Positions 1,232-20,254 of a DNA stretch of 24,829 nt are shown here, one piece after another. The first letter of the stretch is position 1. Every line of letters begins with the position of its first letter. The DNA lies in IMG/VR virus record IMGVR_UViG_3300027772_001322, positions 1 to 24,829 of that record. One strand, written 5' to 3'. This stretch comes from a virus (taxonomy: Duplodnaviria > Caudoviricetes). Both the position numbers and the translations under genes were made by a program. The notes under the pieces were generated by a model. The model did no database searches and was not told the DNA's origin. It saw nothing but the letters and a program-made list of their open reading frames with translations.

Positions 1232-1912
1232 TTAGCGTATTTCAGGGAACAAACAATCCTGAATGAAATGTGTGACATCCTCTTCACTTAGCCCTAAACT
1301 GACCATAACTTTAGGTGTATGCGGGTTCTGTTTCTGATTAACGCAGTAGTAGTTCTGCGCATCTGTAGTGTCTCTAGCAGTTTTATTAGTTTCGTCCACA
1401 GTTTCTAAATAGTGATCAACACCTTTCTTTGCCATGGCGAATATCTGCTCTAATTCAGCTGGTTCGCTCACATTGCCAGCGGCAATCATATTACCACTGA
1501 AAATACGTTCTGCCCAGTCTGGAAGTTTACGCTTGCGATTCCAATCCAGTTTGTTAGATTCATCAGCAAACCAATCCAACATGGGATGTTCTGTATCACC
1601 AGCAGGACTATAATCGTAGAAACAGCCAGTTATTTTACGTTTGCCAGCAATCACATCAAAGCCAAAAATAGGTGCAGGATTGTGTGTGTATGGAAAAATG
1701 CAACAGTGCATCATCCACAGTCCTTTTGTTTCTCTAGCATCTACAACATCAATGTGTGCTCTGCGATAGCGACTACTTTGCCACACTTTGTTGACCCATC
1801 CTGGTTGATTGAAACGATCCATGCCTGGTTCGTGTATAATACTGCCGGTTGCGTAAAAGCGTGATTCGAAGTATTCTTCGATTTTAATTAATGTATCCCA
1901 GACGTCACTCAT
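1232..1912 (-). CDS. pcyX: Ferredoxin-dependent bilin reductase, PcyX type
   Basis: FDBR motifs RRAHIDVVD, WMMHCCIFP, PIFGFDVIAG, LPDWAERIFS, QKQNPHT. His69/Asp86 pair present, with Asp55 where cyanobacterial PcyA has Glu (recalled PcyX signature). Directly downstream of heme oxygenase. Confidence 0.88.
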   Translation of the reverse strand: MSDVWDTLIKIEEYFESRFYATGSIIHEPGMDRFNQPGWVNKVWQSSRYRRAHIDVVDARETKGLWMMHCCIFPYTHNPAPIFGFDVIAGKRKITGCFYDYSPAGDTEHPMLDWFADESNKLDWNRKRKLPDWAERIFSGNMIAAGNVSEPAELEQIFAMAKKGVDHYLETVDETNKTARDTTDAQNYYCVNQKQNPHTPKVMVSLGLSEEDVTHFIQDCLFPEIR

Positions 1913-2453
1913 CTGTAACCTGTGTCATCATTTGTTCAAATAGTTTACCAGCAAATTCAAAACATACAACTGCTTCATCTGCAAGGCTGTCATCCAGTTT
2001 GGCACGTAGAATATTTTTAATAGCTTCTGGATCGCCATCAAACTGATACATCTTACCAGCACCTGGTACTCGCTTGGCAATCATTTGTCCACCACTCAAA
2101 TCACCAAAATGACGTACATACAAGTGTGCCAACAGTTTTTTAGGATCATCTTTAATACTAATAATATATTGTATGTATTCGTTTACTGCTGGACACATGT
2201 ACGGTGAACTGGTGTCATCTCCCCATAGTTCTAAGAAGTCGGACAGTATAGCAGGTGCTCTACGAATGGCGGGATAGTCATTCATCAAGCCGTGTGGCAT
2301 AGCACACACTTCTAAAATTTCATAACAAGGGTGTTGATTCTTAAGGAATGTTGCGTACAGCTTGGGATCAATTTTACCTGAAAACAATACCTTAACAAAA
2401 GGCTTGGTCTCTGCCGCTTTGTGGGCCGCATGTGTGAGATCTTTTAAGCTCAT
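1905..2453 (-). CDS. hemO: Heme oxygenase (biliverdin-producing)
   Basis: LKDLTHAAHKAAE proximal His helix and AHLYVRHFGDLSGGQMIA distal helix signature. Confidence 0.93.
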   Translation of the reverse strand: MSLKDLTHAAHKAAETKPFVKVLFSGKIDPKLYATFLKNQHPCYEILEVCAMPHGLMNDYPAIRRAPAILSDFLELWGDDTSSPYMCPAVNEYIQYIISIKDDPKKLLAHLYVRHFGDLSGGQMIAKRVPGAGKMYQFDGDPEAIKNILRAKLDDSLADEAVVCFEFAGKLFEQMMTQVTDE

Positions 2454-2752
2454 TCTTCTTCCAGTTTAATCTGCAATGGGTGGCCGTTGGTACGTGCTTG
2501 ATTTGTGGCTTCAACTGCTTTTGCTTCAGCAATTTCAAAACTGTAAACACCTGCAATGCCCGACCCAGTTTCGTGAACATCCAGCATGATTTCACGTGCA
2601 GTATCGTCTGTGTGTTTGAAAATTTCTATTAATACTCCAATCACAAACTCCATGGGAGTTGAATCGTCATTTAACAATATGACCTTCCAACGTTTTGGTT
2701 CTGATATAGTTACTTTAATTTTTTCATCTAATTGGATGTCAGTGGTTGCCAT
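2450..2752 (-). CDS. clpS: ClpS N-degron adaptor
   Basis: KVILLNDDSTPMEFV and MLDVHETGSGIAGVYSFEIAEAK motifs. Start moved to ATG 2752 (MATTDIQ); its stop overlaps the hemO start (ATGA). Confidence 0.93.
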   Translation of the reverse strand: MATTDIQLDEKIKVTISEPKRWKVILLNDDSTPMEFVIGVLIEIFKHTDDTAREIMLDVHETGSGIAGVYSFEIAEAKAVEATNQARTNGHPLQIKLEEE

Positions 2753-2766
2753 TATGTTCTCTTTCA

Positions 2767-2788
2767 AAGAGGGGGAGTTTCCTCCCCC
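2767..2788 (-). terminator. Hairpin/weak intrinsic terminator after hsp20
   Basis: Minus strand GGGGGAG-GAAA-CTCCCCC followed by TCTTT; GNRA loop, short U tract. Confidence 0.65.
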
Positions 2789-2795
2789 CGGTTTA

Positions 2796-3218
2796 TTATT
2801 TAATCTCGATTTGTCGAGGCTTCAATGCTTCTGGCACAAGACGTTGAATGTCTATTTGCAACATTCCGTTTTCTACCTTAGCACCCCTAACTTCCATATA
2901 CTCAGCAAGAGTAAATGTCTGTTCAAAATCACGAGCTGCCAATCCTCGATGCAAGTATTCTACTTCGCCTTCGTTCGGACGATTTTTTACGCCACGGATT
3001 GTTAGTTGGTCTTGATCCACTTCTACAGTAACTTCTTCTTTGCTGAAGCCTGCCACAGCAACTTCAATACCGTAACTACCATCATTATATTTTACAATAT
3101 TATGTGGAGGATAGTTACCATTTTGGTGATGCGGTGCAGTGAAGTAGCGATCAAATCCCACTAGTGCTCTACTTAGTTGGGCAAGAGCTGCCGTATCTAT
3201 TGTTCTAAGTTGGTTCAT
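2796..3218 (-). CDS. hsp20: Small heat shock protein (Hsp20/IbpA-like)
   Basis: NYPPHNIVK, IEVAVAGF, YLHRGLAARDFEQTFTLA, ENGMLQI motifs. Start ATG 3218 behind an AAAGGAGA SD. Confidence 0.95.
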   Translation of the reverse strand: MNQLRTIDTAALAQLSRALVGFDRYFTAPHHQNGNYPPHNIVKYNDGSYGIEVAVAGFSKEEVTVEVDQDQLTIRGVKNRPNEGEVEYLHRGLAARDFEQTFTLAEYMEVRGAKVENGMLQIDIQRLVPEALKPRQIEIK

Positions 3219-3271
3219 AATTTTCTCCTTTAAATAAGCAAGAACCGTGTAGGGCCCCGGAGGCACCCTAC
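3216..3271 (-). promoter_or_regulatory. hsp20 5' leader: tetraloop hairpin plus ROSE-like RNA thermometer
   Basis: GTAGGGT-G-CC-TCCG-GG-GCCCTAC hairpin, then TTCTTGCT...AGGAGAA with UUGCU pairing the SD around a bulged G. Confidence 0.8.
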
Positions 3272-3283
3272 GTTTGTATTATA

Positions 3284-5191
3284 TTACTTTTTCTCTGCAG
3301 GGTCAACTTCTGTGAAGCTAGCATCTACAGTTTGTTCAGTCGCTGGCGTTGCTTGGGCAGTTGCTTGAGCACTTTCGGCGGCTTGTTTCTTAGCCATAAC
3401 TGGTCCTGCGGCTTCGAAGAATGTTTCAACTGATTTTTGAACAGCATCCTTATCTTCTCCGGCACAGGCTTCCTCTACAGCTTTAACTGATTCGTCAAAC
3501 TTTGTGCGTTCTTCTTCAGTCAATTGATCTTTGTACGTATCGTAATCTTTCTTAATGCTGTGGGTTGTTGCTTCAGCATTGTTACGTGCATCAATCAATT
3601 CTTTTGCCTTCTTGTCTGATTCAGCATTTTCTTCAGCTTCACGGACCATGCGTTGGATCTCAGCTTCGGTCAATCCGCTATCAGATTTGATAGTAATCTT
3701 ATTTTCTTTGCCAGTGTTTTTATCCTTGGCACTTACATTAAGAATACCGTTGGCATCAATGTCTAAGGTAACTTCAATTTGTGGGGTACCACGCATTGCT
3801 GGAGCAATACCTTCTAAATTGAACTCGCCTAACAGTTTGTTAAATCTAAACAAGTCACGTTCGCCTTGCGCAACTTTAATAGTTACAGCTGGTTGATTAT
3901 CATCAGCAGTACTGAATGTTTGACTGTGTTTAGTTGGAATAGTTGTGTTCTTGGCAATCAGCTTGGTAAACACTCCGCCCATTGTTTCAATACCTAGTGT
4001 CAATGGAGTAACGTCCAACAACAACACGTCTGTCTTGTCGCCAGATAATACCGCACCTTGAATGGCAGCACCTGCGGCCACTGCTTCGTCTGGGTTGACG
4101 TCTTTACGTGGGGCCTTGCCAAACAGTTTCTCAACTGCTTCTTGTACTTTAGGCATACGTGTTTGTCCACCAACAAGAATAACTTCGTCGATGTCTGCGG
4201 CTGTAACTTTGGCATCGGACATTGCAATCTTACATGGCTCAATACTACGCTCGATTAGTTTTTCAACCATTTGTTCAAACTTAGTACGACTAATGGTTAC
4301 ATTCAAGTGTTTAGGACCACTTGCATCAGCTGTAACATATGGCAAGTTAACTGTGGTTTGAGCTGTGCTAGATAACTCAATCTTGGCTTTTTCAGCTGAG
4401 TCTTTCAAACGCTGTAAGGCAAGCATATCTTGTTTCAAGTCAATGCCGTTTTCTTTCTTAAACTCATCAACTAGATAATCCATAAGAGCCTGGTCAAAGT
4501 CTTCACCGCCAAGGAATGTATCGCCGTTTGTTGACAACACTTCAATTTGCTTGTCGCCGTCCACATTGGCAATTTCAATTATGGAGATATCAAATGTGCC
4601 GCCGCCCAAGTCGTATACCGCAATCTTGCGATCTCTCTTGTCTTGTTTGTCTACACCGTATGCCAGTGCGGCCGCTGTTGGCTCGTTGATAATACGCAAT
4701 ACTTCTAAACCTGCAATCTTACCTGCATCTTTGGTTGCTTGGCGTTGGCTGTCATTGAAGTAAGCTGGAACTGTAATAACCGCTTGAGTTACTGTTGTGC
4801 CCAGATAGTCTTCAGCAGTCTTTTTCATTTTTCTAAGTACTTCAGCTGACACCTGTTGTGGTGCTAGTTTTTCTCCATTTGCTTCAATCCATGCATCACC
4901 ATTGTCTGCTTGGACAATAGCGTATGGCATCAAGTCAATGTCTTTTTGTACTTCTTTCTCGTCAAACTTACGTCCAATAAGACGCTTGCTGGCGTAGATA
5001 GTATTCTTTGGATTTGTGACTGCTTGTCGTTTTGCTGTTGCGCCTACCAGTACTTCTTTGTCTGTATACGCAATGATTGATGGTGTTGTTCTAGCACCTT
5101 CGCTGTTTTCAATTACTTTGGCAATTCCGTTTTCTAGGATTGCCACACAGCTATTTGTTGTACCTAAATCGATACCGATGATTTTGCTCAT
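3284..5191 (-). CDS. dnaK: Chaperone DnaK (Hsp70)
   Basis: [47 protein letters not shown] motifs. Start ATG 5191 (MSKIIG) behind AAAGGAGA. Confidence 0.98.
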
Positions 5192-5245
5192 AATTTTCTC
5201 CTTTAAATTAAGCAAGAATATGTAAAACCCTTACGGCGTTTTACA
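5189..5245 (-). promoter_or_regulatory. dnaK 5' leader: tetraloop hairpin plus ROSE-like RNA thermometer
   Basis: TGTAAAAC-G-CC-GTAA-GG-GTTTTACA hairpin, then TTCTTGCTTAATTTAAAGGAGAAAATTATG, near-identical to the hsp20 leader. Confidence 0.8.
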
Positions 5246-5257
5246 AATTTATTTATC

Positions 5258-5542
5258 TCAGATATTCTCTAAATTCTGAATATTTGACCACTTTTTTAGC
5301 TTTTCAATTTTGGCTTCCTGGGCACGTTCAATGTTGGTATAGGACACAATATCCATACTGTGCAAGATATCAATCATTGCCAACATATCACCCAATTCTT
5401 CTTCCAAGTGTTCTCGATTGGTTTTGGGTTTGCCTGGCTTGAAATTGTCCAGTCCAAAGCGGCTGATCTTACTTACCGCTTGTATAACTTCAGCACATTC
5501 TTCTTGGAGAATGTCCATTACTTCTTTAATTTGACTATCCAT
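5258..5542 (-). CDS. MazG-like NTP pyrophosphohydrolase
   Basis: LQEECAEVIQAVSK ... LEEELGDMLAMI (EExxE / EExxD metal-binding motifs). Confidence 0.85.
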   Translation of the reverse strand: MDSQIKEVMDILQEECAEVIQAVSKISRFGLDNFKPGKPKTNREHLEEELGDMLAMIDILHSMDIVSYTNIERAQEAKIEKLKKWSNIQNLENI

Positions 5543-5545
5543 ATA

Positions 5546-6127
5546 TTACCTTTGATTTGCAAATGGTGCGATGTAACTTCCACCGCTTGTGGTACTGGTA
5601 CGCAATGTGTTATAGACAGTTTGAATACCAACAGCTTGATTCCATGCATCCTCAAGAGCATGGTGAGCTGTGACTGGTGGACGCTGAGGATTGATACCTA
5701 AATCAAATGCTGTGCGTACATCACGTACTTCCCAGAATTTCCAAGGAATAGCACGATTGATTTTACGGTAAACATGTTCGCAAATGATGATGTCAAAACA
5801 ACTACCATTTGACCAAACACGTTTTGCACCCCAGCAGAATTTATACAGTCGAGCAAATGCTTCTTCTATATCAATTCTATCATTAGGGTCAAATGCGGCT
5901 TCTTGCGCTTCTTTGCTTTGATTAGCCCACCAAGCAATGGTATCGTCACTTGTTGTTAAGCCAATCCTGTCACAGCTATCAACATCTACTCGACAGTAAA
6001 AACTATCCATTTTGGGTTCTTTAATTTCAGATCCAAACGGATCAAACTTTACAGCACCAATTGTGAGAATAGTTGCGTCAGGAGTTGTGTTTAGAGTCTC
6101 CAAATCTATCATAATGTCAGTATTCAT
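5546..6127 (-). CDS. DEDDh 3'-5' exo(ribo)nuclease (RNase AS-like)
   Basis: IMIDLETL, WSNGSCFDI, RDVRT, HHALEDA motifs. Confidence 0.88.
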   Translation of the reverse strand: MNTDIMIDLETLNTTPDATILTIGAVKFDPFGSEIKEPKMDSFYCRVDVDSCDRIGLTTSDDTIAWWANQSKEAQEAAFDPNDRIDIEEAFARLYKFCWGAKRVWSNGSCFDIIICEHVYRKINRAIPWKFWEVRDVRTAFDLGINPQRPPVTAHHALEDAWNQAVGIQTVYNTLRTSTTSGGSYIAPFANQR

Positions 6128-6133
6128 ACAAAC

Positions 6134-6162
6134 ATTATAACAGACTTAGATTGTGATGTCAA
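6134..6162 (-). promoter_or_regulatory. Consensus sigma70 promoter, probably leaderless transcript
   Basis: TTGACA(6162-6157)-17 nt-TATAAT(6139-6134); ATG 6 nt later with no SD. Confidence 0.85.
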
Positions 6163-6392
6163 TACATTTTCTTAGGTAATTGCTGATCTCTGAGCTTCTT
6201 TTTCCAACGTGCTTTGGCGGCACCTTTTTTACGTTTGCGCTCTGTAGTTGGTTTTTCGTAAAATTCTTTGGCACGTAAGTCGTCCAAAAGACCTGAGTCT
6301 TCAATTTTACGTTTAAATCGTCGCAAGGCTTGGTTGATGTTTTCACCGTCTTTGACAGTTACACCAGTTCCCTTACTCTTCTTGTACATCAT
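6159..6392 (-). CDS. rpsU: Ribosomal protein bS21
   Basis: [19 protein letters not shown]...[14 protein letters not shown] signature. Start is 6392 or 6389 (GAGG upstream). Confidence 0.93.
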
Positions 6393-6789
6393 CGTCTTCA
6401 TCCTCTTCGTAGTTTTTAATTTGGTTCACAATCCAGTCTAAATTATATATGCGATTTTTACTTATCAGATTAAATGGAGTGGTATCATCTTTAGTGATAT
6501 AGTGTGTATTGGCTTGTGCTAATAAAAACGTAGAAAACTGTTTGGTGATTGGATCGCAATTATCGATATCCAAAATGATAACTTCTACTTGGTGAGCAAT
6601 GCTCAACATCCAGCCAATATCGTGATCTTCGTTATCAAACACAAAAACGTTGATGTCATCAATGCTTTGACTTAGAATTGTTTGGAATTGTTCTTTAACA
6701 TAGTTGCTAGGTTTAACTAGCAAATAACTTAAATTCATATTAAACAATTTGTCTGGTGGCGTAATTAAGGTTATTTTTCCTAAATTCAT
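6373..6789 (-). CDS. Hypothetical protein
   Basis: 138-aa ORF tiling between neighbours; acidic tail overlaps the bS21 start. Confidence 0.8.
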
Positions 6790-6905
6790 ATAGTATTCTT
6801 TTTAATTTTTGTCCAAAGCGAATTGTTTGATTGTTCTGCATTTTGAACATAGCCTATCTGCTCTTCACTTGTATGTGACCCGTAGGGTCCTTGATCATAT
6901 AAGTC
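6786..6905 (-). other. Putative -1 frameshift extension (39 aa) of the 6854-8164 protein
   Basis: The -1 frame after A_AAA_AAG reads [39 protein letters not shown]; its TGA (6788-6786) overlaps the next ATG. Confidence 0.6.
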
Positions 6906-8164
6906 TTTTTTTTTGAATCTTCAGGTTCAATAACTTCTGTAAAATCCGGACGTATTCTGGTTTGATTATAGTAAGACACTGAATCAACCCACTGACTTCC
7001 ATTAAAAGTAAATTCCCTTGGAGTATCAAAGTCCATGCGAGTGAAGACTTGGCCTTCAACTGGATTATATGGAAACTGTGTTCCTTGATCTTTATCCAGT
7101 TCTTTTTGAAGTTCAGGAATAATTTGATACTTTCTAGCTTCTTTCTCAATTACTTCCTTTTCAACTTCTTTCTCGGCCTCTTCAATCATTTTGTTCCATT
7201 GCTCTAATGGTATATCCTCTACCATTTCTGCTGGCTTTTCCTCCGGCGCTGTTATATCACCTCCTAGTGCAGTCGACGGTGTTTCGCTTGGAACTTCTTC
7301 TGTGTGTGTTGGTGTAATTTCTTCTACTTCGTTTATGGGTTTGTCCACGCCAGCAACAGGCGTTTCTGTATGTGGTACAGTTGTGTGTAAAAGGTGTTCG
7401 TCTTCATCCTTCTTCCAACCAAAGGTCATCTGTGCGGCCAACAACATGATAACTGCTAATGGATCAAATACAATAACAATGAGAATAATAATCCATGTTA
7501 CTGCTCGTTCCAACATATTTTCATCTGCACCTTTTTCACCGTAGATGAATTTGGCAATGTATTTGATTGGACCTACTTCTGCTTCTACCTTCCTGACCTC
7601 GGCCGCGATTGGAGCCCGTTCTTGACTAACGGCAGCAATAGCTTTCTGTTCGGTTGTGATCTCAGACTGAAGCCTTGCACGTTCTTTTTGTTGACTACGT
7701 CTAATTTGAACTGCTTTCTCGGCGCCTTTTTCATCACTGCTTCTGCCCATGACTTGGTCCACAGCCTCATCCATCTGTTTAAGCGCCTTGCGGTTGGCAT
7801 CTATATTGTCCTTTGCAGTTTTAATCTTTTCGTCATAGATAGCAATCTTACTTTGAACATCACCACTAACTAGATTTTGATCGTTGTGTGCTTTGGAAAG
7901 GAATCCAAAAATACCCATCGAGGTAATAATCATTAACACAACTACTGAAATGATCATGTAGTATTTTATAAAACGTGGAGCACGTTCCCAATTGGCTTTT
8001 AACCAACTTGCACATACCAATTTACCTACTTCTAAAGCTGATCCCATTATTATAATAGGAATCACAGCCGCGGAAAATATAGCAGTTAAACCTACTACAG
8101 AATAGTAGATTGCAACTGCTGATATTATTAAACCTGTTAGAAGTAATAGCCAAGCTAAAATCAT
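6854..8164 (-). CDS. Membrane protein: 3 N-terminal TM helices, coiled coil, fourth TM, acidic tail
   Basis: Hydrophobic segments near aa 1-90 and 222-247 flank a heptad-rich region. Confidence 0.85.
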   Translation of the reverse strand: MILAWLLLLTGLIISAVAIYYSVVGLTAIFSAAVIPIIIMGSALEVGKLVCASWLKANWERAPRFIKYYMIISVVVLMIITSMGIFGFLSKAHNDQNLVSGDVQSKIAIYDEKIKTAKDNIDANRKALKQMDEAVDQVMGRSSDEKGAEKAVQIRRSQQKERARLQSEITTEQKAIAAVSQERAPIAAEVRKVEAEVGPIKYIAKFIYGEKGADENMLERAVTWIIILIVIVFDPLAVIMLLAAQMTFGWKKDEDEHLLHTTVPHTETPVAGVDKPINEVEEITPTHTEEVPSETPSTALGGDITAPEEKPAEMVEDIPLEQWNKMIEEAEKEVEKEVIEKEARKYQIIPELQKELDKDQGTQFPYNPVEGQVFTRMDFDTPREFTFNGSQWVDSVSYYNQTRIRPDFTEVIEPEDSKKKTYMIKDPTGHIQVKSR

Positions 8165-8174
8165 ATGCTAGTAT

Positions 8175-8510
8175 TTATTTGAATACAATTAAAGCCAATA
8201 GAGCGGCTTGTACAAAAAATCCAAATCCAATGGTAACAATGTTTAGCAAGTCCTTTTGGATGGTTGCTTTAATAAACAAGCAAAACAATCCAGCCCAAGC
8301 AAACAACACCATATCCACTGGTGGCATCTTTTCAGTTAACCCTGTCAGCACAGCAATCATGGTGGGCACGGTAGCAAGGTGTAACAGTACCACAGCAACC
8401 CACCCCATGGTTTCCGCACTTAAATGTGGTGCATTTTCTTTAATGGTTTTGACCCACAAGTTCAAATCAAAGAAATCGTGTATGCTAGTTTTAAGTTTTT
8501 CAATGTTCAT
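8175..8510 (-). CDS. Small 3-TM membrane protein (holin candidate)
   Basis: Three hydrophobic segments; directly downstream of the cell wall hydrolase; AGGA SD. Function inferred from context only. Confidence 0.7.
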   Translation of the reverse strand: MNIEKLKTSIHDFFDLNLWVKTIKENAPHLSAETMGWVAVVLLHLATVPTMIAVLTGLTEKMPPVDMVLFAWAGLFCLFIKATIQKDLLNIVTIGFGFFVQAALLALIVFK

Positions 8511-8518
8511 AATGTATC

Positions 8519-9049
8519 CTAGTTATAAAAAATATGACGACCAATTTTTGCCACTGGCTGTTTGCCCCATTTGGGATTGACATAGTCACCATGGAAGTAA
8601 AGTGCATGTTTGATAGAAGGCAATCTAAATCCTTCCAACAATACCTTTTTGGCCACTTCCATACTTTCTGTGTACACCGGTCCGTTCATGGGTTTCTTAA
8701 CACTAGGACCTTCGCAGTACCAACTAAACTGGCACAGAACTTTTTCGTACACAATATTTTTTTGATAGACAACTTGGCAGATGTCGCTGGGAAATTGTCC
8801 GCTTTCTGCTCGATTAATTGTAACCTGAGCTACTGCTACCTTTCCTTCAAATGGTTCACCACCGGCCTCGTGATATATGTTGCGAGCCAAACAATCTAGT
8901 TGTTTTTGTCTTAGTTCGGCTGTGACCGGACTTACGTTCATGCGGGCTTCTTTAAGATGGTCTAATTTATAATTAATGACCTTGTAGCCTGCATATGTCA
9001 CTGCTAGAAGTGCTAGAGTGAATATTACAAATTTTATGATGCGTATCAT
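8519..9049 (-). CDS. SleB-like cell wall hydrolase (Hydrolase_2) with N-terminal anchor
   Basis: CLARNIYHEAGGE...AVAQVTINR, CQFSW, IGRHIFY motifs; AAAGGAGA SD. Confidence 0.92.
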   Translation of the reverse strand: MIRIIKFVIFTLALLAVTYAGYKVINYKLDHLKEARMNVSPVTAELRQKQLDCLARNIYHEAGGEPFEGKVAVAQVTINRAESGQFPSDICQVVYQKNIVYEKVLCQFSWYCEGPSVKKPMNGPVYTESMEVAKKVLLEGFRLPSIKHALYFHGDYVNPKWGKQPVAKIGRHIFYN

Positions 9050-9682: not shown

Positions 9683-10009
9683 TTATACTCGAAAACTTTC
9701 GCCGCAACCGCAACGGTCACGTTCGTTTGGATTGATGAAATCAAAACCTTCATTTAGTCCATTGCGGACCCAATCCATTGTCAAGCCATTTAGATAGACT
9801 AGACTTTTGGCATCTACCAATACTACAAAATCTTTTTGAGCAAAGTTAGTTACGCCCTGTTCAGCTTCATAACTATCCACATATTCCATAGTATAGGCCA
9901 ATCCACTGCACCCAGTAGTTCTTACACCTACACGAATGCCTGCGCCTTTGCCGCGGCGCTCTAAATTTTGCTTGATTTTTTTATATGCTATGTCGGTTAC
10001 GGTAATCAT
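9683..10009 (-). CDS. iscA: A-type Fe-S carrier IscA
   Basis: RVGVRTTGCSGLAY and NPN...CGCGESF (3 conserved Cys). Confidence 0.95.
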   Translation of the reverse strand: MITVTDIAYKKIKQNLERRGKGAGIRVGVRTTGCSGLAYTMEYVDSYEAEQGVTNFAQKDFVVLVDAKSLVYLNGLTMDWVRNGLNEGFDFINPNERDRCGCGESFRV

Positions 10010-10364
10010 TCACAGCCGCTTTGATAGCATCTTCTGCCAATATACTGCAATGTATCTTTACAGGAGGTAGGGCTAGTTCTTCGGCGATGTCGGAGTTTTT
10101 GATAGACGACGCTTGATCAAGACTCATGCCTTTTACTAACTCAGTAATAAGACTACTACTAGCAATAGCACTGCCGCAACCATATGTTTTAAAACGTGCA
10201 TCAGTAATAATGCCATCTTCACCTACCTTTATTTGCAGTTTCATCACATCGCCGCAAGCAGGGGCACCAACCATACCAGTACCAATACTAGGATCACTCT
10301 TATCAAAAGATCCAACGTTCCTGGGATTTTCATAGTGGTCAATGACCTTGTCGCTGTATGCCAT
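9981..10364 (-). CDS. iscU: Fe-S scaffold IscU
   Basis: MAYSDKVIDHYENPRNVG, APACGDVM, FKTYGCGSAIASSS, LPPVKIHCS. Confidence 0.97.
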   Translation of the reverse strand: MAYSDKVIDHYENPRNVGSFDKSDPSIGTGMVGAPACGDVMKLQIKVGEDGIITDARFKTYGCGSAIASSSLITELVKGMSLDQASSIKNSDIAEELALPPVKIHCSILAEDAIKAAVNDYRNRHSI

Positions 10365-10379
10365 ATTGTATTTATGTTA

Positions 10380-10574
10380 TTATTTTGGTTCTTTTCGTGC
10401 GTTTTTAACTGCGGTAACATCGTTACGTGTGTCTTTGCACAACTTTGCCAAATCTTGACAATGTTTACGAACACGGGTGCCGGCAGCGCCAACTTCCTTG
10501 TCATAAAACTTTTCAAAGTCTGCTTCCATTGCTTCTACTATTGCTGTGAATTCTGCGTGTTTGTTTGTAGCCAT
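10380..10574 (-). CDS. Histone H1-like (Hc1 N-terminal-domain-like) small protein
   Basis: DFEKFYDKEVGAAGTRVRKHCQDLAKLCKDTR matches the recalled KF..K...AAGTR.RK pattern; AAAGGA SD. Confidence 0.72.
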   Translation of the reverse strand: MATNKHAEFTAIVEAMEADFEKFYDKEVGAAGTRVRKHCQDLAKLCKDTRNDVTAVKNARKEPK

Positions 10575-12613: not shown

Positions 12614-13270
12614 TTAATATTTTCCTGATGCAAGTACTATCTTGCAAATGTGTTCTAATCGTTCAATATGTTCGTATGCTCGCCATGGGGTGTTGCCAAT
12701 GGCTACCACGCCGTGTCCTTTGATTCCTACTATATCAAACTTGATGTTGCCGTCGCGGTCAAGTCCCAAGTTGTGATGACAAGCTTCGCCCAATTCTTCA
12801 CTGATAGGAGCAACATCTCCCACATTGTGTGCTACCTTGGTATAACGATTTAATTCTGGAAACGAATCACTAACAGTGCCCAAGTCAATACCGGCATGCA
12901 TGGCCGCAATACAGTAGGTGGGATGAACATGAACCACCACACGCACATCGTCTTTGTGCTGTCCCAATTCTTTCTGTAGTCCAAAATGCAAAGGCATCTC
13001 ACCACTAGGTTCCAAGTTGCCCGACAAGTCAGTTTGTTCAATAACACTCCATGAATAGTTAAATGCGCCGGAACCAACACCACTGTTAATTGTTCTCCAT
13101 ATGGCAATCTTTTTAAACATCTCTGGTTGCATCTGCTGTTTACGCACACCACTAGGTGTCACATAAAAATGATCACGGTCATGATGGCGTATAGAAATGT
13201 TACCATCTCTACTGGTGATCCAATTACGCTTGTAAGCGTCTACTAATATATCGCAACATGTTTCTAACAT
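12614..13270 (-). CDS. Class II aldolase/adducin family protein
   Basis: DGNISIR, VTPSG, SGEMPLH, HVHP and GHGVVAIG (three Zn-binding His). Confidence 0.9.
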   Translation of the reverse strand: MLETCCDILVDAYKRNWITSRDGNISIRHHDRDHFYVTPSGVRKQQMQPEMFKKIAIWRTINSGVGSGAFNYSWSVIEQTDLSGNLEPSGEMPLHFGLQKELGQHKDDVRVVVHVHPTYCIAAMHAGIDLGTVSDSFPELNRYTKVAHNVGDVAPISEELGEACHHNLGLDRDGNIKFDIVGIKGHGVVAIGNTPWRAYEHIERLEHICKIVLASGKY

Positions 13271-18966: not shown

Positions 18967-19289
18967 GCCTTCATTGCCCTTTTTGTAGCACTTTTGGCTG
19001 CTTTGTCTACCATGTTTGGTGCTGGCTTGCCTTGTCCGGGTTGATCAACGTTCTTGTTAGTTTTAATAACTAGACCATTGCCATCAAACCTGTCCACAAG
19101 TTTTTTCATGATGGGATCACTTTCCCAACGTTTTGAGAAACGATCATAATCTATATCGGGCGAGCTGTATTGTTGACCTGCTTGATTCAGAGCTTCCCAG
19201 GTCATGGGTGCGATTACATCTTCGCTGTTTGCTCTGCTTTGTAGAGCCCTTAGTGTTAAAACCAAGGGGTCCACTGTCTCACTAATTAC
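18963..19289 (-). CDS. Hypothetical domain, probably expressed as a -1 frameshift fusion to the upstream protein
   Basis: Frame is open from the slippery site at 19289; the first candidate start is GTG 19274 with no clear SD. Confidence 0.7.
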   Translation of the reverse strand, partial: VISETVDPLVLTLRALQSRANSEDVIAPMTWEALNQAGQQYSSPDIDYDRFSKRWESDPIMKKLVDRFDGNGLVIKTNKNVDQPGQGKPAPNMVDKAAKSATKRAMKA

Positions 19290-20254
19290 TTTTTTTTTGA
19301 TTGTGCCAATAACATGCCTAATTTACGGCTGTAGTCAATGCTTTCACGTTTCATTCTGTCTTCTTCTGGCGCAGGAGGAGTCATTTCTTCTGGAGCTCCC
19401 ATTGCTTCTTCGCCTGGCATGCCTGCTGGTGCGCCCATTGCATCTGGTGATGGTGTGCCCATTGTTGGTGCCTCTCCGCCTGATACTAGTGCTAATCCGC
19501 CTTGTAATCCTTGACGACTTGCTTCTAAAGCTGTGTAAATTGCCTCTAGGGCAGGTTTCACTGCATCGCCGTATTGCTGAGCAACATCGCTGCCTAGTGT
19601 TTCTCTTATAGAGTCTTGTAATTCTAAAAGCTGTTCAGCTTTCATAGCGGCTGTGTCTTCTAACCACCCAGTGATACGATCTACCATGTCCTTGGTGGCC
19701 ATAATAACTTTGGCTTTGTCTTCTTCGCCTTCTGCTAGGTACACAATATAGTTTGCTGTGCTTTCTGCCAAATCATAACGTAGTGTTAGTTCAGCACTTA
19801 GTTCTGCTTCATCAGATTCGCCTAGGCTGATTCTGTTAATTGCATTGTTGATCCAGCTGGCTGGAACTTTGTACTGTTGAGCCTTTTGTCTAATTGATTC
19901 AGCTTGAACTTTCTTGCGCAATTCAGCTTTTTCATCGTCCATGCTTTCATCTACTTCATCACACTCACATGGATCTTTGTGGCATTCTTCGCACTTGCCT
20001 TCTTCGCGTTCCATGATTTCTTTGTTGATAACATCCAACAAAGCACGAGTCTTTTGGTATTTAGGATTGATGTGTAAGTTGTCGAAGCTTTCGTTAACTT
20101 CAAACTGGCTCATTTCTGTACGCAGTTTGTTACGCACGTCTTCCAGCTGAACATCACTAAAGTGTTCTAACTTTAATTTATAACCAAATTGACTGGCCAA
20201 GTTTTCGTTTAGTCTTTTGCTAGTTACAGGTTTTGATAATTCTCTTATTTGCAT
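19286..20254 (-). CDS. Acidic helical protein, prohead core/scaffold-like
   Basis: 322 aa, Glu-rich, many [LIV]-x-E sites, Pro/Ala/Gly-rich linker; TATAAATA at 20295-20288. Function is inferred. Confidence 0.7.
   Translation of the reverse strand: MQIRELSKPVTSKRLNENLASQFGYKLKLEHFSDVQLEDVRNKLRTEMSQFEVNESFDNLHINPKYQKTRALLDVINKEIMEREEGKCEECHKDPCECDEVDESMDDEKAELRKKVQAESIRQKAQQYKVPASWINNAINRISLGESDEAELSAELTLRYDLAESTANYIVYLAEGEEDKAKVIMATKDMVDRITGWLEDTAAMKAEQLLELQDSIRETLGSDVAQQYGDAVKPALEAIYTALEASRQGLQGGLALVSGGEAPTMGTPSPDAMGAPAGMPGEEAMGAPEEMTPPAPEEDRMKRESIDYSRKLGMLLAQSKKK

Follow-up and report, generated by a model that had tools for sequence, protein, structure and literature searches.

Why would a phage gene for a membrane protein keep nine consecutive A's just before its stop codon, with two reading frames open beyond them? 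The gene lies in a 24.8-kb fragment of an uncultured virus record (IMGVR_UViG_3300027772_001322, positions 1 to 24,829). We refer to this whole stretch as the window, and every gene in it is on the minus strand. The A's are at 6914-6906. Judging from the sequences of its relatives, this run is a real, conserved programmed recoding signal, and neither chance nor an assembly error, and the gene likely makes proteins with two alternative C-termini through a one-base slip. As for how the slip occurs, we put the probability that RNA polymerase slippage is the main mechanism at roughly 0.58. A shift that is mainly ribosomal comes second, and it would surprise us if the answer lay anywhere outside of these two.

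The slip site and its two tails

The argument depends on four features of the window (ORF, open reading frame; aa, amino acids):

6854..8164, minus strand: frame-0 ORF of 436 aa, which encodes the short or "S" product (from the ORF, its translation, and hydropathy)
6905..6916, minus strand: slip site TCA AAA AAA AAG (TCAAAAAAAAAG), in frame with the 436-aa ORF (8164..6854)
6854..6904, minus strand: frame-0 tail of 16 aa, or motif A (TYMIKDPTGHIQVKSR), and its TAG stop at 6856-6854 (from translation)
6786..6905, minus strand: -1 frame tail of 39 aa, read from G6905, and its TGA stop at 6788-6786; this gives the long or "L" product (from translation)

The run of nine A's (A9) lies within the slip site, and the heptamer A_AAA_AAG is embedded there in frame. 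If the ribosome stays in frame 0, the junction peptide is TYMIKDPTGHIQVK; the peptide across the long-tail junction would span KKK-DLYDQG.... The -1 tail contains what we call motif B (YVQNAEQ at 6851-6831, then a conserved W), and in the window's -1 frame, the stretch from the run to motif B lacks ATG, GTG, and TTG codons. The TGA of the -1 frame (6788-6786) overlaps the ATG (6789-6787) of a downstream 138-aa ORF as ATGA. An original prediction, made from the letters of this DNA, had described most of this: a 12-mer in frame within the membrane protein gene, tails of 16 aa (frame 0) and 39 aa (-1), and a -1 tail whose stop overlaps the start codon of the gene that follows. Translation of the sequence agrees with it on all of these points. 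The same 12-mer was also said to recur, and a scan of the window found two exact copies (6916-6905 and 19300-19289), as compared to 0.04 expected by chance; none of 100 shuffled sequences contained two or more.

The run is conserved as nucleotides

When viral contigs were scanned with the 436-aa protein, 579 stretches that encode relatives were confirmed, and the best 80 loci were kept. We considered a relative to have the site if it had an in-frame A7G preceded by 150 or more open codons. By this definition, 68 of the best 80 loci have the site, 5 end at the edge of the contig before they would reach it, and 7 lack it. Adding the window gives 69 sequences with the site, which include 46 distinct segments of 192 nucleotides (nt).

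Most of the distinct segments (42 of 46) have nine A's, preceded by TC in 41 cases (TCA) and by CC in one (CCA); the other four have TCT and then eight A's (TCT-A8). The eight A's that precede the G, and the G itself, do not vary in any of the 46; 42 also have the ninth A. Counted over 70 loci, the run lengths are A9 (60 loci), A8 (8), and A10 (2). The linker just upstream is quite different: across the 24 bases before the run, the column entropy is 1.1-1.97 and is mostly 1.4 or above. Elsewhere in these genes, lysine is encoded by AAA 859 times and by AAG 405 times (68% vs. 32%), and the longest run of A's is 5-7. Also, SKKK was not found at this position in the relatives that lack the run. 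Because the A's are fixed even at wobble positions, while the linker varies and AAG is otherwise common, we argue that the run is selected as nucleotides and not as Lys-Lys-Lys.

Both downstream frames are conserved as protein

All 69 sequences with the site encode a frame-0 tail of 16-18 aa, with the consensus TYMxKDxxGxIQxKxR. Within the region where the two frames overlap, the mean entropy is about 1.17 at the third positions of frame 0 and about 0.7 at the other two. This peak in variability at third positions implies that frame 0 is under purifying selection in the overlap.

In each of the 69 sequences, the -1 frame is likewise open beyond the run, and no start codon was seen in that frame in their tails. 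Motif B has the form YVQNxEQ...W, and its Y, Q, N, E, Q, and W are fixed in 45 of 45 tails; the third positions of its codons vary and the first two are constant. Downstream of the frame-0 stop, conserved coding passes to the -1 frame. So both tails are conserved as protein and the -1 tail is free of stops in the relatives, as should be the case if the original prediction of two C-termini is right.

For most of the relatives, the -1 tail is longer than it is in the window. It has 100-115 aa in 39 of the 45 distinct tails, with a helical domain of about 70 aa, and it occupies a gap of 228-249 nt that is otherwise non-coding. The window belongs to a minority with short tails (39-43 aa) that lack the helical domain, and a quick tree suggests that the short form arose several times. 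We modeled the -1 tail of one long-tailed relative (L005): it forms a small helical domain with a predicted local distance difference test score (pLDDT) of about 84, and the stretch with motif B is below 50. Foldseek found no match for this tail in the Protein Data Bank (PDB) with E <= 0.001. Motif B occurs once per genome, with no further copies in either the window or a 356-kb relative.

Where do the two motifs come from? Four of the loci (L034, L046, L060, and L061) have no run of A's, and in each of them a single frame encodes ...SWMEKDTQGNQVKKVKE-I-YQQNAEQNEKTLWQRIQ..., that is, a motif-A-like stretch of equal length with motif B directly after it. When a database was searched with this C-terminus, 444 proteins matched, and motif B is in frame in 105 of the best 120. 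Because the motifs are contiguous in one frame in the relatives that lack the run, we conclude that motifs A and B come from one protein family. In the clade that has the run, the two are never in one frame, so that they are mutually exclusive. In a quick tree, the loci without the run form one group (support of 100) that is weakly nested (86) among the sequences with the run, on a long branch. The outgroup is very distant and the nesting is weak, so this tree polarizes the change in neither direction: the single-frame form may be either ancestral or derived. The homologue from Pelagibacter phage Mosig also has no run of A's at its 3' end. We also asked whether a further slip at the frame-0 stop might put motifs A and B back together, and dropped the idea: the sequences there vary and share no slippery pattern.

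Probable slippage by RNA polymerase

Transcriptional slippage is expected when a homopolymer of about eight or more A's or T's lies at the junction of the frames (PMC3711429). On nine A's or T's, bacterial RNA polymerase adds one to six bases to its transcripts, the longer products being progressively rarer, as for dnaX of Thermus (PMC5009743). At our site there are nine A's, the purifying selection extends to synonymous positions, and both frames are conserved. Furthermore, the conserved run has 8-10 A's, while the heptamer for a ribosomal shift needs just six A's and a G. The excess is two to three A's.

The lineages with ten A's are informative. A10 is present in the DNA of three lineages (L023 and L024, which are from two samples; L028; and G002). 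The DNA frame of these lineages yields the long form, and motif A and its stop are intact in another frame. That frame lies +1 of the DNA frame, rather than -1 as it always should if the ribosome were responsible. Because a -1 ribosomal shift cannot reach the motif-A frame, these lineages count against the ribosome as the sole mechanism. Transcripts of mixed length can reach it, which favors slippage by the polymerase.

Environmental RNA leans in the same direction. Five metatranscriptome contigs, from four runs, cross the A's. Two of these have nine A's. One has 11 and is otherwise identical to the window, and one has 14, with one mismatch to the window; these four contigs (A9, A9, A11, and A14) have 0-1 mismatch to the window. 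The fifth has ten A's, and its flank is an exact match to L005, whose DNA contig has nine. So three of the five contigs are altered, and all of the changes are insertions (+1, +2, and +5 A's). By comparison, among 72 DNA contigs from the viral collection with the same flank, 71 have A9, one has A10, and none have A8 (Fisher p = 5e-4 for RNA vs. DNA contigs). Nor does run length differ within any of the 14 groups of loci with identical flanks.

If this mechanism is correct, RNA polymerase would add extra A's into the transcript at the A9 run, and a ribosomal -1 shift on the embedded A_AAA_AAG might contribute. (Transcriptional slippage and ribosomal shifting may act at one site; PMC5009743.) Messages with 9 or 12 A's would give the short form, which ends in motif A. 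Messages with 10 or 13 A's (+1 or +4) would give the long form, in which a hydrophilic linker and motif B replace motif A; in many relatives, the long form would also gain the helical domain that the window phage lacks. Messages with 11 or 14 A's (+2 or +5) would give a form that ends three codons further, as the +1 frame is closed by a TGA within a conserved ATGA three codons past the run. Both tails are predicted to be flexible peptides on the cytoplasmic side of the membrane, where they might serve as alternative docking peptides, and a fixed share of the subunits would carry each tail.

Several points weigh against a leading role for the polymerase. First, the site is also a perfect in-frame A_AAA_AAG: an X_XXY_YYZ heptamer is in the zero frame, with its G fixed, in 46 of 46 distinct sequences, and this is the most shift-prone -1 heptamer in E. 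coli (PMC5009743). (In the -1 frame, this invariant G also begins a conserved D/E codon.) Second, the RNA evidence consists of assembled contigs, at depths of around 4-6, and not of reads, while the DNA control comes from other assemblies that were made with other assemblers. The RNA libraries may contain some DNA, and the extra A's may reflect slippage by reverse transcriptase during library preparation. Third, just one of the three altered RNA contigs would encode the long form (the +1 contig, from a relative); the +2 and +5 contigs would encode the truncated form. Fourth, the four A8 lineages would slip less during transcription. Finally, both protein forms are predictions from the sequence.

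Alternative explanations

The best alternative is that a programmed -1 ribosomal frameshift on A_AAA_AAG is the main or only mechanism, with tRNA-Lys in the P and A sites slipping back by one base on mRNA of uniform length. The heptamer is in the correct frame for this and is retained in the A8 variants. It is the shift site of E. coli dnaX and of insertion sequence (IS) elements, and stimulators are dispensable in some phage shifts (both from PMC5009743). In cassettes of the dnaX or IS3 type, a conserved stem-loop or pseudoknot is expected a few bases downstream of the heptamer. The original prediction had pointed to a hairpin right after the run:

6867..6904, minus strand: interrupted hairpin, present in the window but not conserved

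The hairpin does exist and folds at -12.6 kcal/mol, so this part of the prediction holds. The proposed role as a stimulator does not, and we rejected it. The folding is not significant (z = -1.36; 19 of 200 shuffles fold as well), RNAalifold found no pairs in the consensus of the 46 relatives, and across the relatives the hairpin's positions can pair in 55.4% of cells, as compared to 55.8% in shuffles. Nor is there a clear Shine-Dalgarno-like element upstream: judging from the consensus alone, positions -17 to -12 have a conserved GAnGAn, which encodes acidic residues, and not GGAGG. A ribosomal shift also does not explain why the run is conserved two to three A's past the heptamer, why the motif-A frame persists in three A10 lineages although it is out of reach of a -1 shift, why a second site in this phage (see below) ends in G, A, or C while its A9 is fixed, or why there are extra A's in RNA contigs. 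So a mainly ribosomal mechanism seems rather unlikely to us, though it is a serious contender. The original prediction had read the site as a -1 ribosomal frameshift signal. The conserved recoding and the two C-termini stand, while the ribosome as the only mechanism is probably wrong, given the run length, the A10 lineages, and the RNA contigs.

The other explanations do not fare well. Under phase variation in the DNA, slippage during replication would toggle the run between A9 and A10, and each genome would encode one form. Homopolymers are slippery for DNA polymerase as well (PMC3711429), and A10 genomes do occur in three lineages. But if the run toggled, we would expect to see both lengths next to the same flank. 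Instead, none of the 14 groups of independently assembled loci with identical flanks differ in run length, 71 of 72 contigs with the window's flank have A9, and A10 is fixed within its lineage, as L023 and L024 are from two samples. We consider phase variation to be very unlikely.

Just as implausible is the idea that there is no recoding. The gene would then stop in frame 0, and the -1 frame would be either a small gene in its own right, with an atypical start, or a remnant in decay. The window's -1 tail is only 39 aa, and here too it matters that the protein forms are predicted from sequence. But a separate gene would need a start codon; in the window none (ATG, GTG, or TTG) separates the run from motif B, nor were any seen in the relatives' tails. 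A remnant should not have invariant residues in motif B alongside variable wobble positions, or a frame that is open past the run in 69 of 69 sequences. And in database relatives without the run, motif B is in frame at the C-terminus of the same protein (105 of the best 120 from 444).

Lastly, homopolymers are error-prone in some sequencing chemistries, but there is next to no chance that the true genome has ten A's and a single ORF, as A9 is repeated in 71 contigs from many samples (with equal run lengths within all 14 groups of identical flanks), the two-frame layout is also found with the TCT-A8 and CCA-A9 variants, and the frame-0 tail is conserved as protein.

A second site in the same phage

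Returning to slippage by the polymerase, the other copy of the 12-mer is in an unrelated gene:

19289..19300, minus strand: second 12-mer (exact match), directly before the TAA of a 322-aa ORF (19286..20254)

The 322-aa ORF has only a weak match to a virion protein in PHROGs. At this sister site, the -1 frame runs to 18963 and would add about 107 aa (DPLVxTLRALQS...). Across 80 related loci, the pattern [T/C]CA-A8-N TAA with a -1 ORF of 100-122 aa is present in 50 of 51 distinct contexts, and the remaining locus ends before the site. The nine A's, at 19298-19290 in the window, are fixed, and the last base is G, A, or C. The claim that the phage reuses one signal in unrelated genes is thus supported.

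The 356-kb relative, which is 96% complete, has only four runs of at least nine A's. Each is on the coding strand, and two are the sites described above. As a separate observation, a third (G001:C1:163015-163023, locus L165) lies midway along a long ORF (Q K K T), and the other two frames stop within 8-10 codons, which is a layout of the Thermus dnaX-gamma type.

We also observed that YC precedes both slip sites (6915-6916 and 19299-19300, minus strand). It is TC in nearly all relatives and CC in a few, and at the membrane protein site the C before the run is fixed in 46 of 46 sequences, including the TCT-A8 variants. To our knowledge, neither slippage mechanism, as currently known, explains the conserved YC.

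The membrane protein and its neighbors

What might the protein do? Four of its segments are hydrophobic, a long helical hairpin separates the third from the fourth, its C-terminal region is acidic, and it contains a coiled coil. The loop at residues 48-68 has five lysines or arginines and one acidic residue. Because this loop is basic, the positive-inside rule would place the helical hairpin (residues ~95-215) outside of the cytoplasm and the acidic C-terminal region inside. The first 250 or so residues are nearly invariant across the clade. An AlphaFold2 (AF2) model of L034, a relative that is not recoded, has helices at 71-148 and 152-215 with pLDDT of about 85-92. The full-length model is poor (mean pLDDT of 60 and predicted template modeling score, or pTM, of 0.27), and both tail motifs lie in stretches below 50. 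Because the model is so weak, we did not use it for a fold search. From these low-confidence stretches, we suspect that the tail motifs are probably flexible, which would fit short docking peptides.

Database comparisons say little about function. Searches of Pfam, PHROGs, and NCBIfam with the 436-aa protein, the -1 tail, and the 138-aa and neighboring 111-aa ORFs returned no match above threshold, and a search of the ESM Atlas with the 436-aa protein found only clusters of viral hypothetical proteins. The window's protein has a sub-threshold match to Tetraspanin. We also considered DUF4407 (PF14362) and set it aside: only L023 matches it (E = 0.0014), and its 18.4 bits are below the gathering score of 31.3.

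The neighbors, in order of position, are:

6159..6401, minus strand: gene for ribosomal protein bS21 (PF01165, E = 1.1e-19)
6373..6789, minus strand: downstream 138-aa ORF, syntenic in relatives
8175-8510, minus strand: hydrophobic 111-aa ORF, between the hydrolase and the 436-aa ORF
8519-9049, minus strand: cell-wall hydrolase (PF07486), the upstream neighbor

In the window (8175-9049), the order is hydrolase (PF07486), hydrophobic 111-aa ORF, and membrane protein. In Pelagibacter phage Mosig, the homologue comes directly after a "putative glucosaminidase," which is a different cell-wall hydrolase. Judging by gene order in the window and at L083 (3307-4939), these genes could form a lysis-type cassette whose hydrolase has been exchanged, and the neighborhood hints at a role in lysis or in handling the envelope.

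Downstream, the 138-aa ORF does overlap the bS21 gene, as the original prediction had it, with 29 nt shared. It also proposed that the frameshift may couple translation to the next gene. The ATGA overlap of the -1 stop and the next ATG occurs in 5 of the 46 distinct sequences, all from the short-tail subgroup. In another short-tailed relative (L017), the next ATG is 2 nt past the first base of the -1 stop. For long-tailed relatives in which the ATG of the next gene was located, the -1 frame extends 35-47 nt into that gene (in 9 sequences, the ATG was not located). Translational coupling of the -1 frame to the next gene is possible.

A bolder scenario would join these observations together. In a clade of huge freshwater phages, stuttering of RNA polymerase on YC-A9 would generate isoforms in several unrelated genes, with three C-terminal states for this one; the ratio of short to long forms, as set by the length of the run, would time lysis in the manner of holin and antiholin; and, because the long frame stops at or within the start of the next gene, the slip would also govern how the bS21 operon is expressed. 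We view this as a long shot.

As for the rest of the window, host-like genes are dense at 1232-6401 and at 9683-10574 (minus strand). These include bilin reductase, heme oxygenase, ClpS, Hsp20, Hsp70/DnaK, and MazG, as well as a 3'-5' exoribonuclease, bS21, IscA-like and IscU/NifU proteins, and an Hc1 histone-like protein. A gene with a class II aldolase/adducin domain (12614-13270, minus strand) sits between the genes for the large and small subunits of ribonucleotide reductase and overlaps both. There are no tRNA genes in the window.

Implications

Gene callers stop at the frame-0 stop, so the conserved -1 tail, which includes a 70-aa domain in relatives, is unannotated in an abundant clade of lake phages. 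The site offers a well-controlled natural example of recoding beyond the tail chaperones and the transposases. Its natural A8, A9, and A10 variants, together with environmental RNA data, bear on the question of polymerase versus ribosome. Two sites in one phage suggest that slippage at A9 is a routine device for expression in these genomes. Also, motifs that are contiguous in some relatives and split into exclusive isoforms in others provide a handle on the tails' binding partners.

Comparison with known systems

Our literature search, which did not cover subscription journals, turned up no publication that deals with this gene family or with A9 sites of lake phages. The mechanism of slippage is known; as far as that search goes, the gene family, the layout with mutually exclusive motifs, and the signal from environmental RNA are new.

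The closest parallel is dnaX of Thermus thermophilus (tau/gamma), which also has nine A's within the coding region and transcripts with extra A's (PMC5009743; PMC3711429). There, too, the two products share a common N-terminus and differ at their C-termini, and the length of the run varies between species (7-10 in dnaX genes and 8-10 here). But in Thermus both of the shifted frames stop at once, so slippage leads to a shorter protein, while here the -1 frame carries a conserved motif and slippage would lead to a longer one. Also, dnaX belongs to a different gene family than the phage membrane protein, and slippage here is inferred from contigs rather than measured.

If the ribosome contributes, then the relevant comparisons are dnaX of E. 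coli and OrfAB of the IS3 family, which have the same heptamer in the same frame and make two products in a fixed ratio (PMC5009743). Those sites are described as having a downstream stem-loop or pseudoknot, and dnaX has a Shine-Dalgarno-like stimulator as well, whereas our site has no conserved structure and a longer run.

For the coupling idea, the nearest precedent that we found is spa13/spa32 of Shigella, where slippage adds a C-terminal extension whose coding end reaches across the start of the following gene and influences that gene's expression (PMC5009743). That case is from a bacterial type III secretion operon, while the ATGA overlap here is confined to the short-tail subgroup.

Among phages, the G/GT genes of lambda also have a 3' end that is extended by a -1 shift, which yields a minor fusion product (PMC5009743). 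The shift in lambda is ribosomal, uses a different heptamer, and serves tail assembly, while our gene encodes a membrane protein and is outside of any tail module. Finally, transcriptional frameshifting in tssM of Citrobacter rodentium gives two length variants of a membrane protein (PMC4256274). In that case, frameshifting rescues a gene that was prematurely interrupted in one species, whereas here both frames are conserved across the clade.

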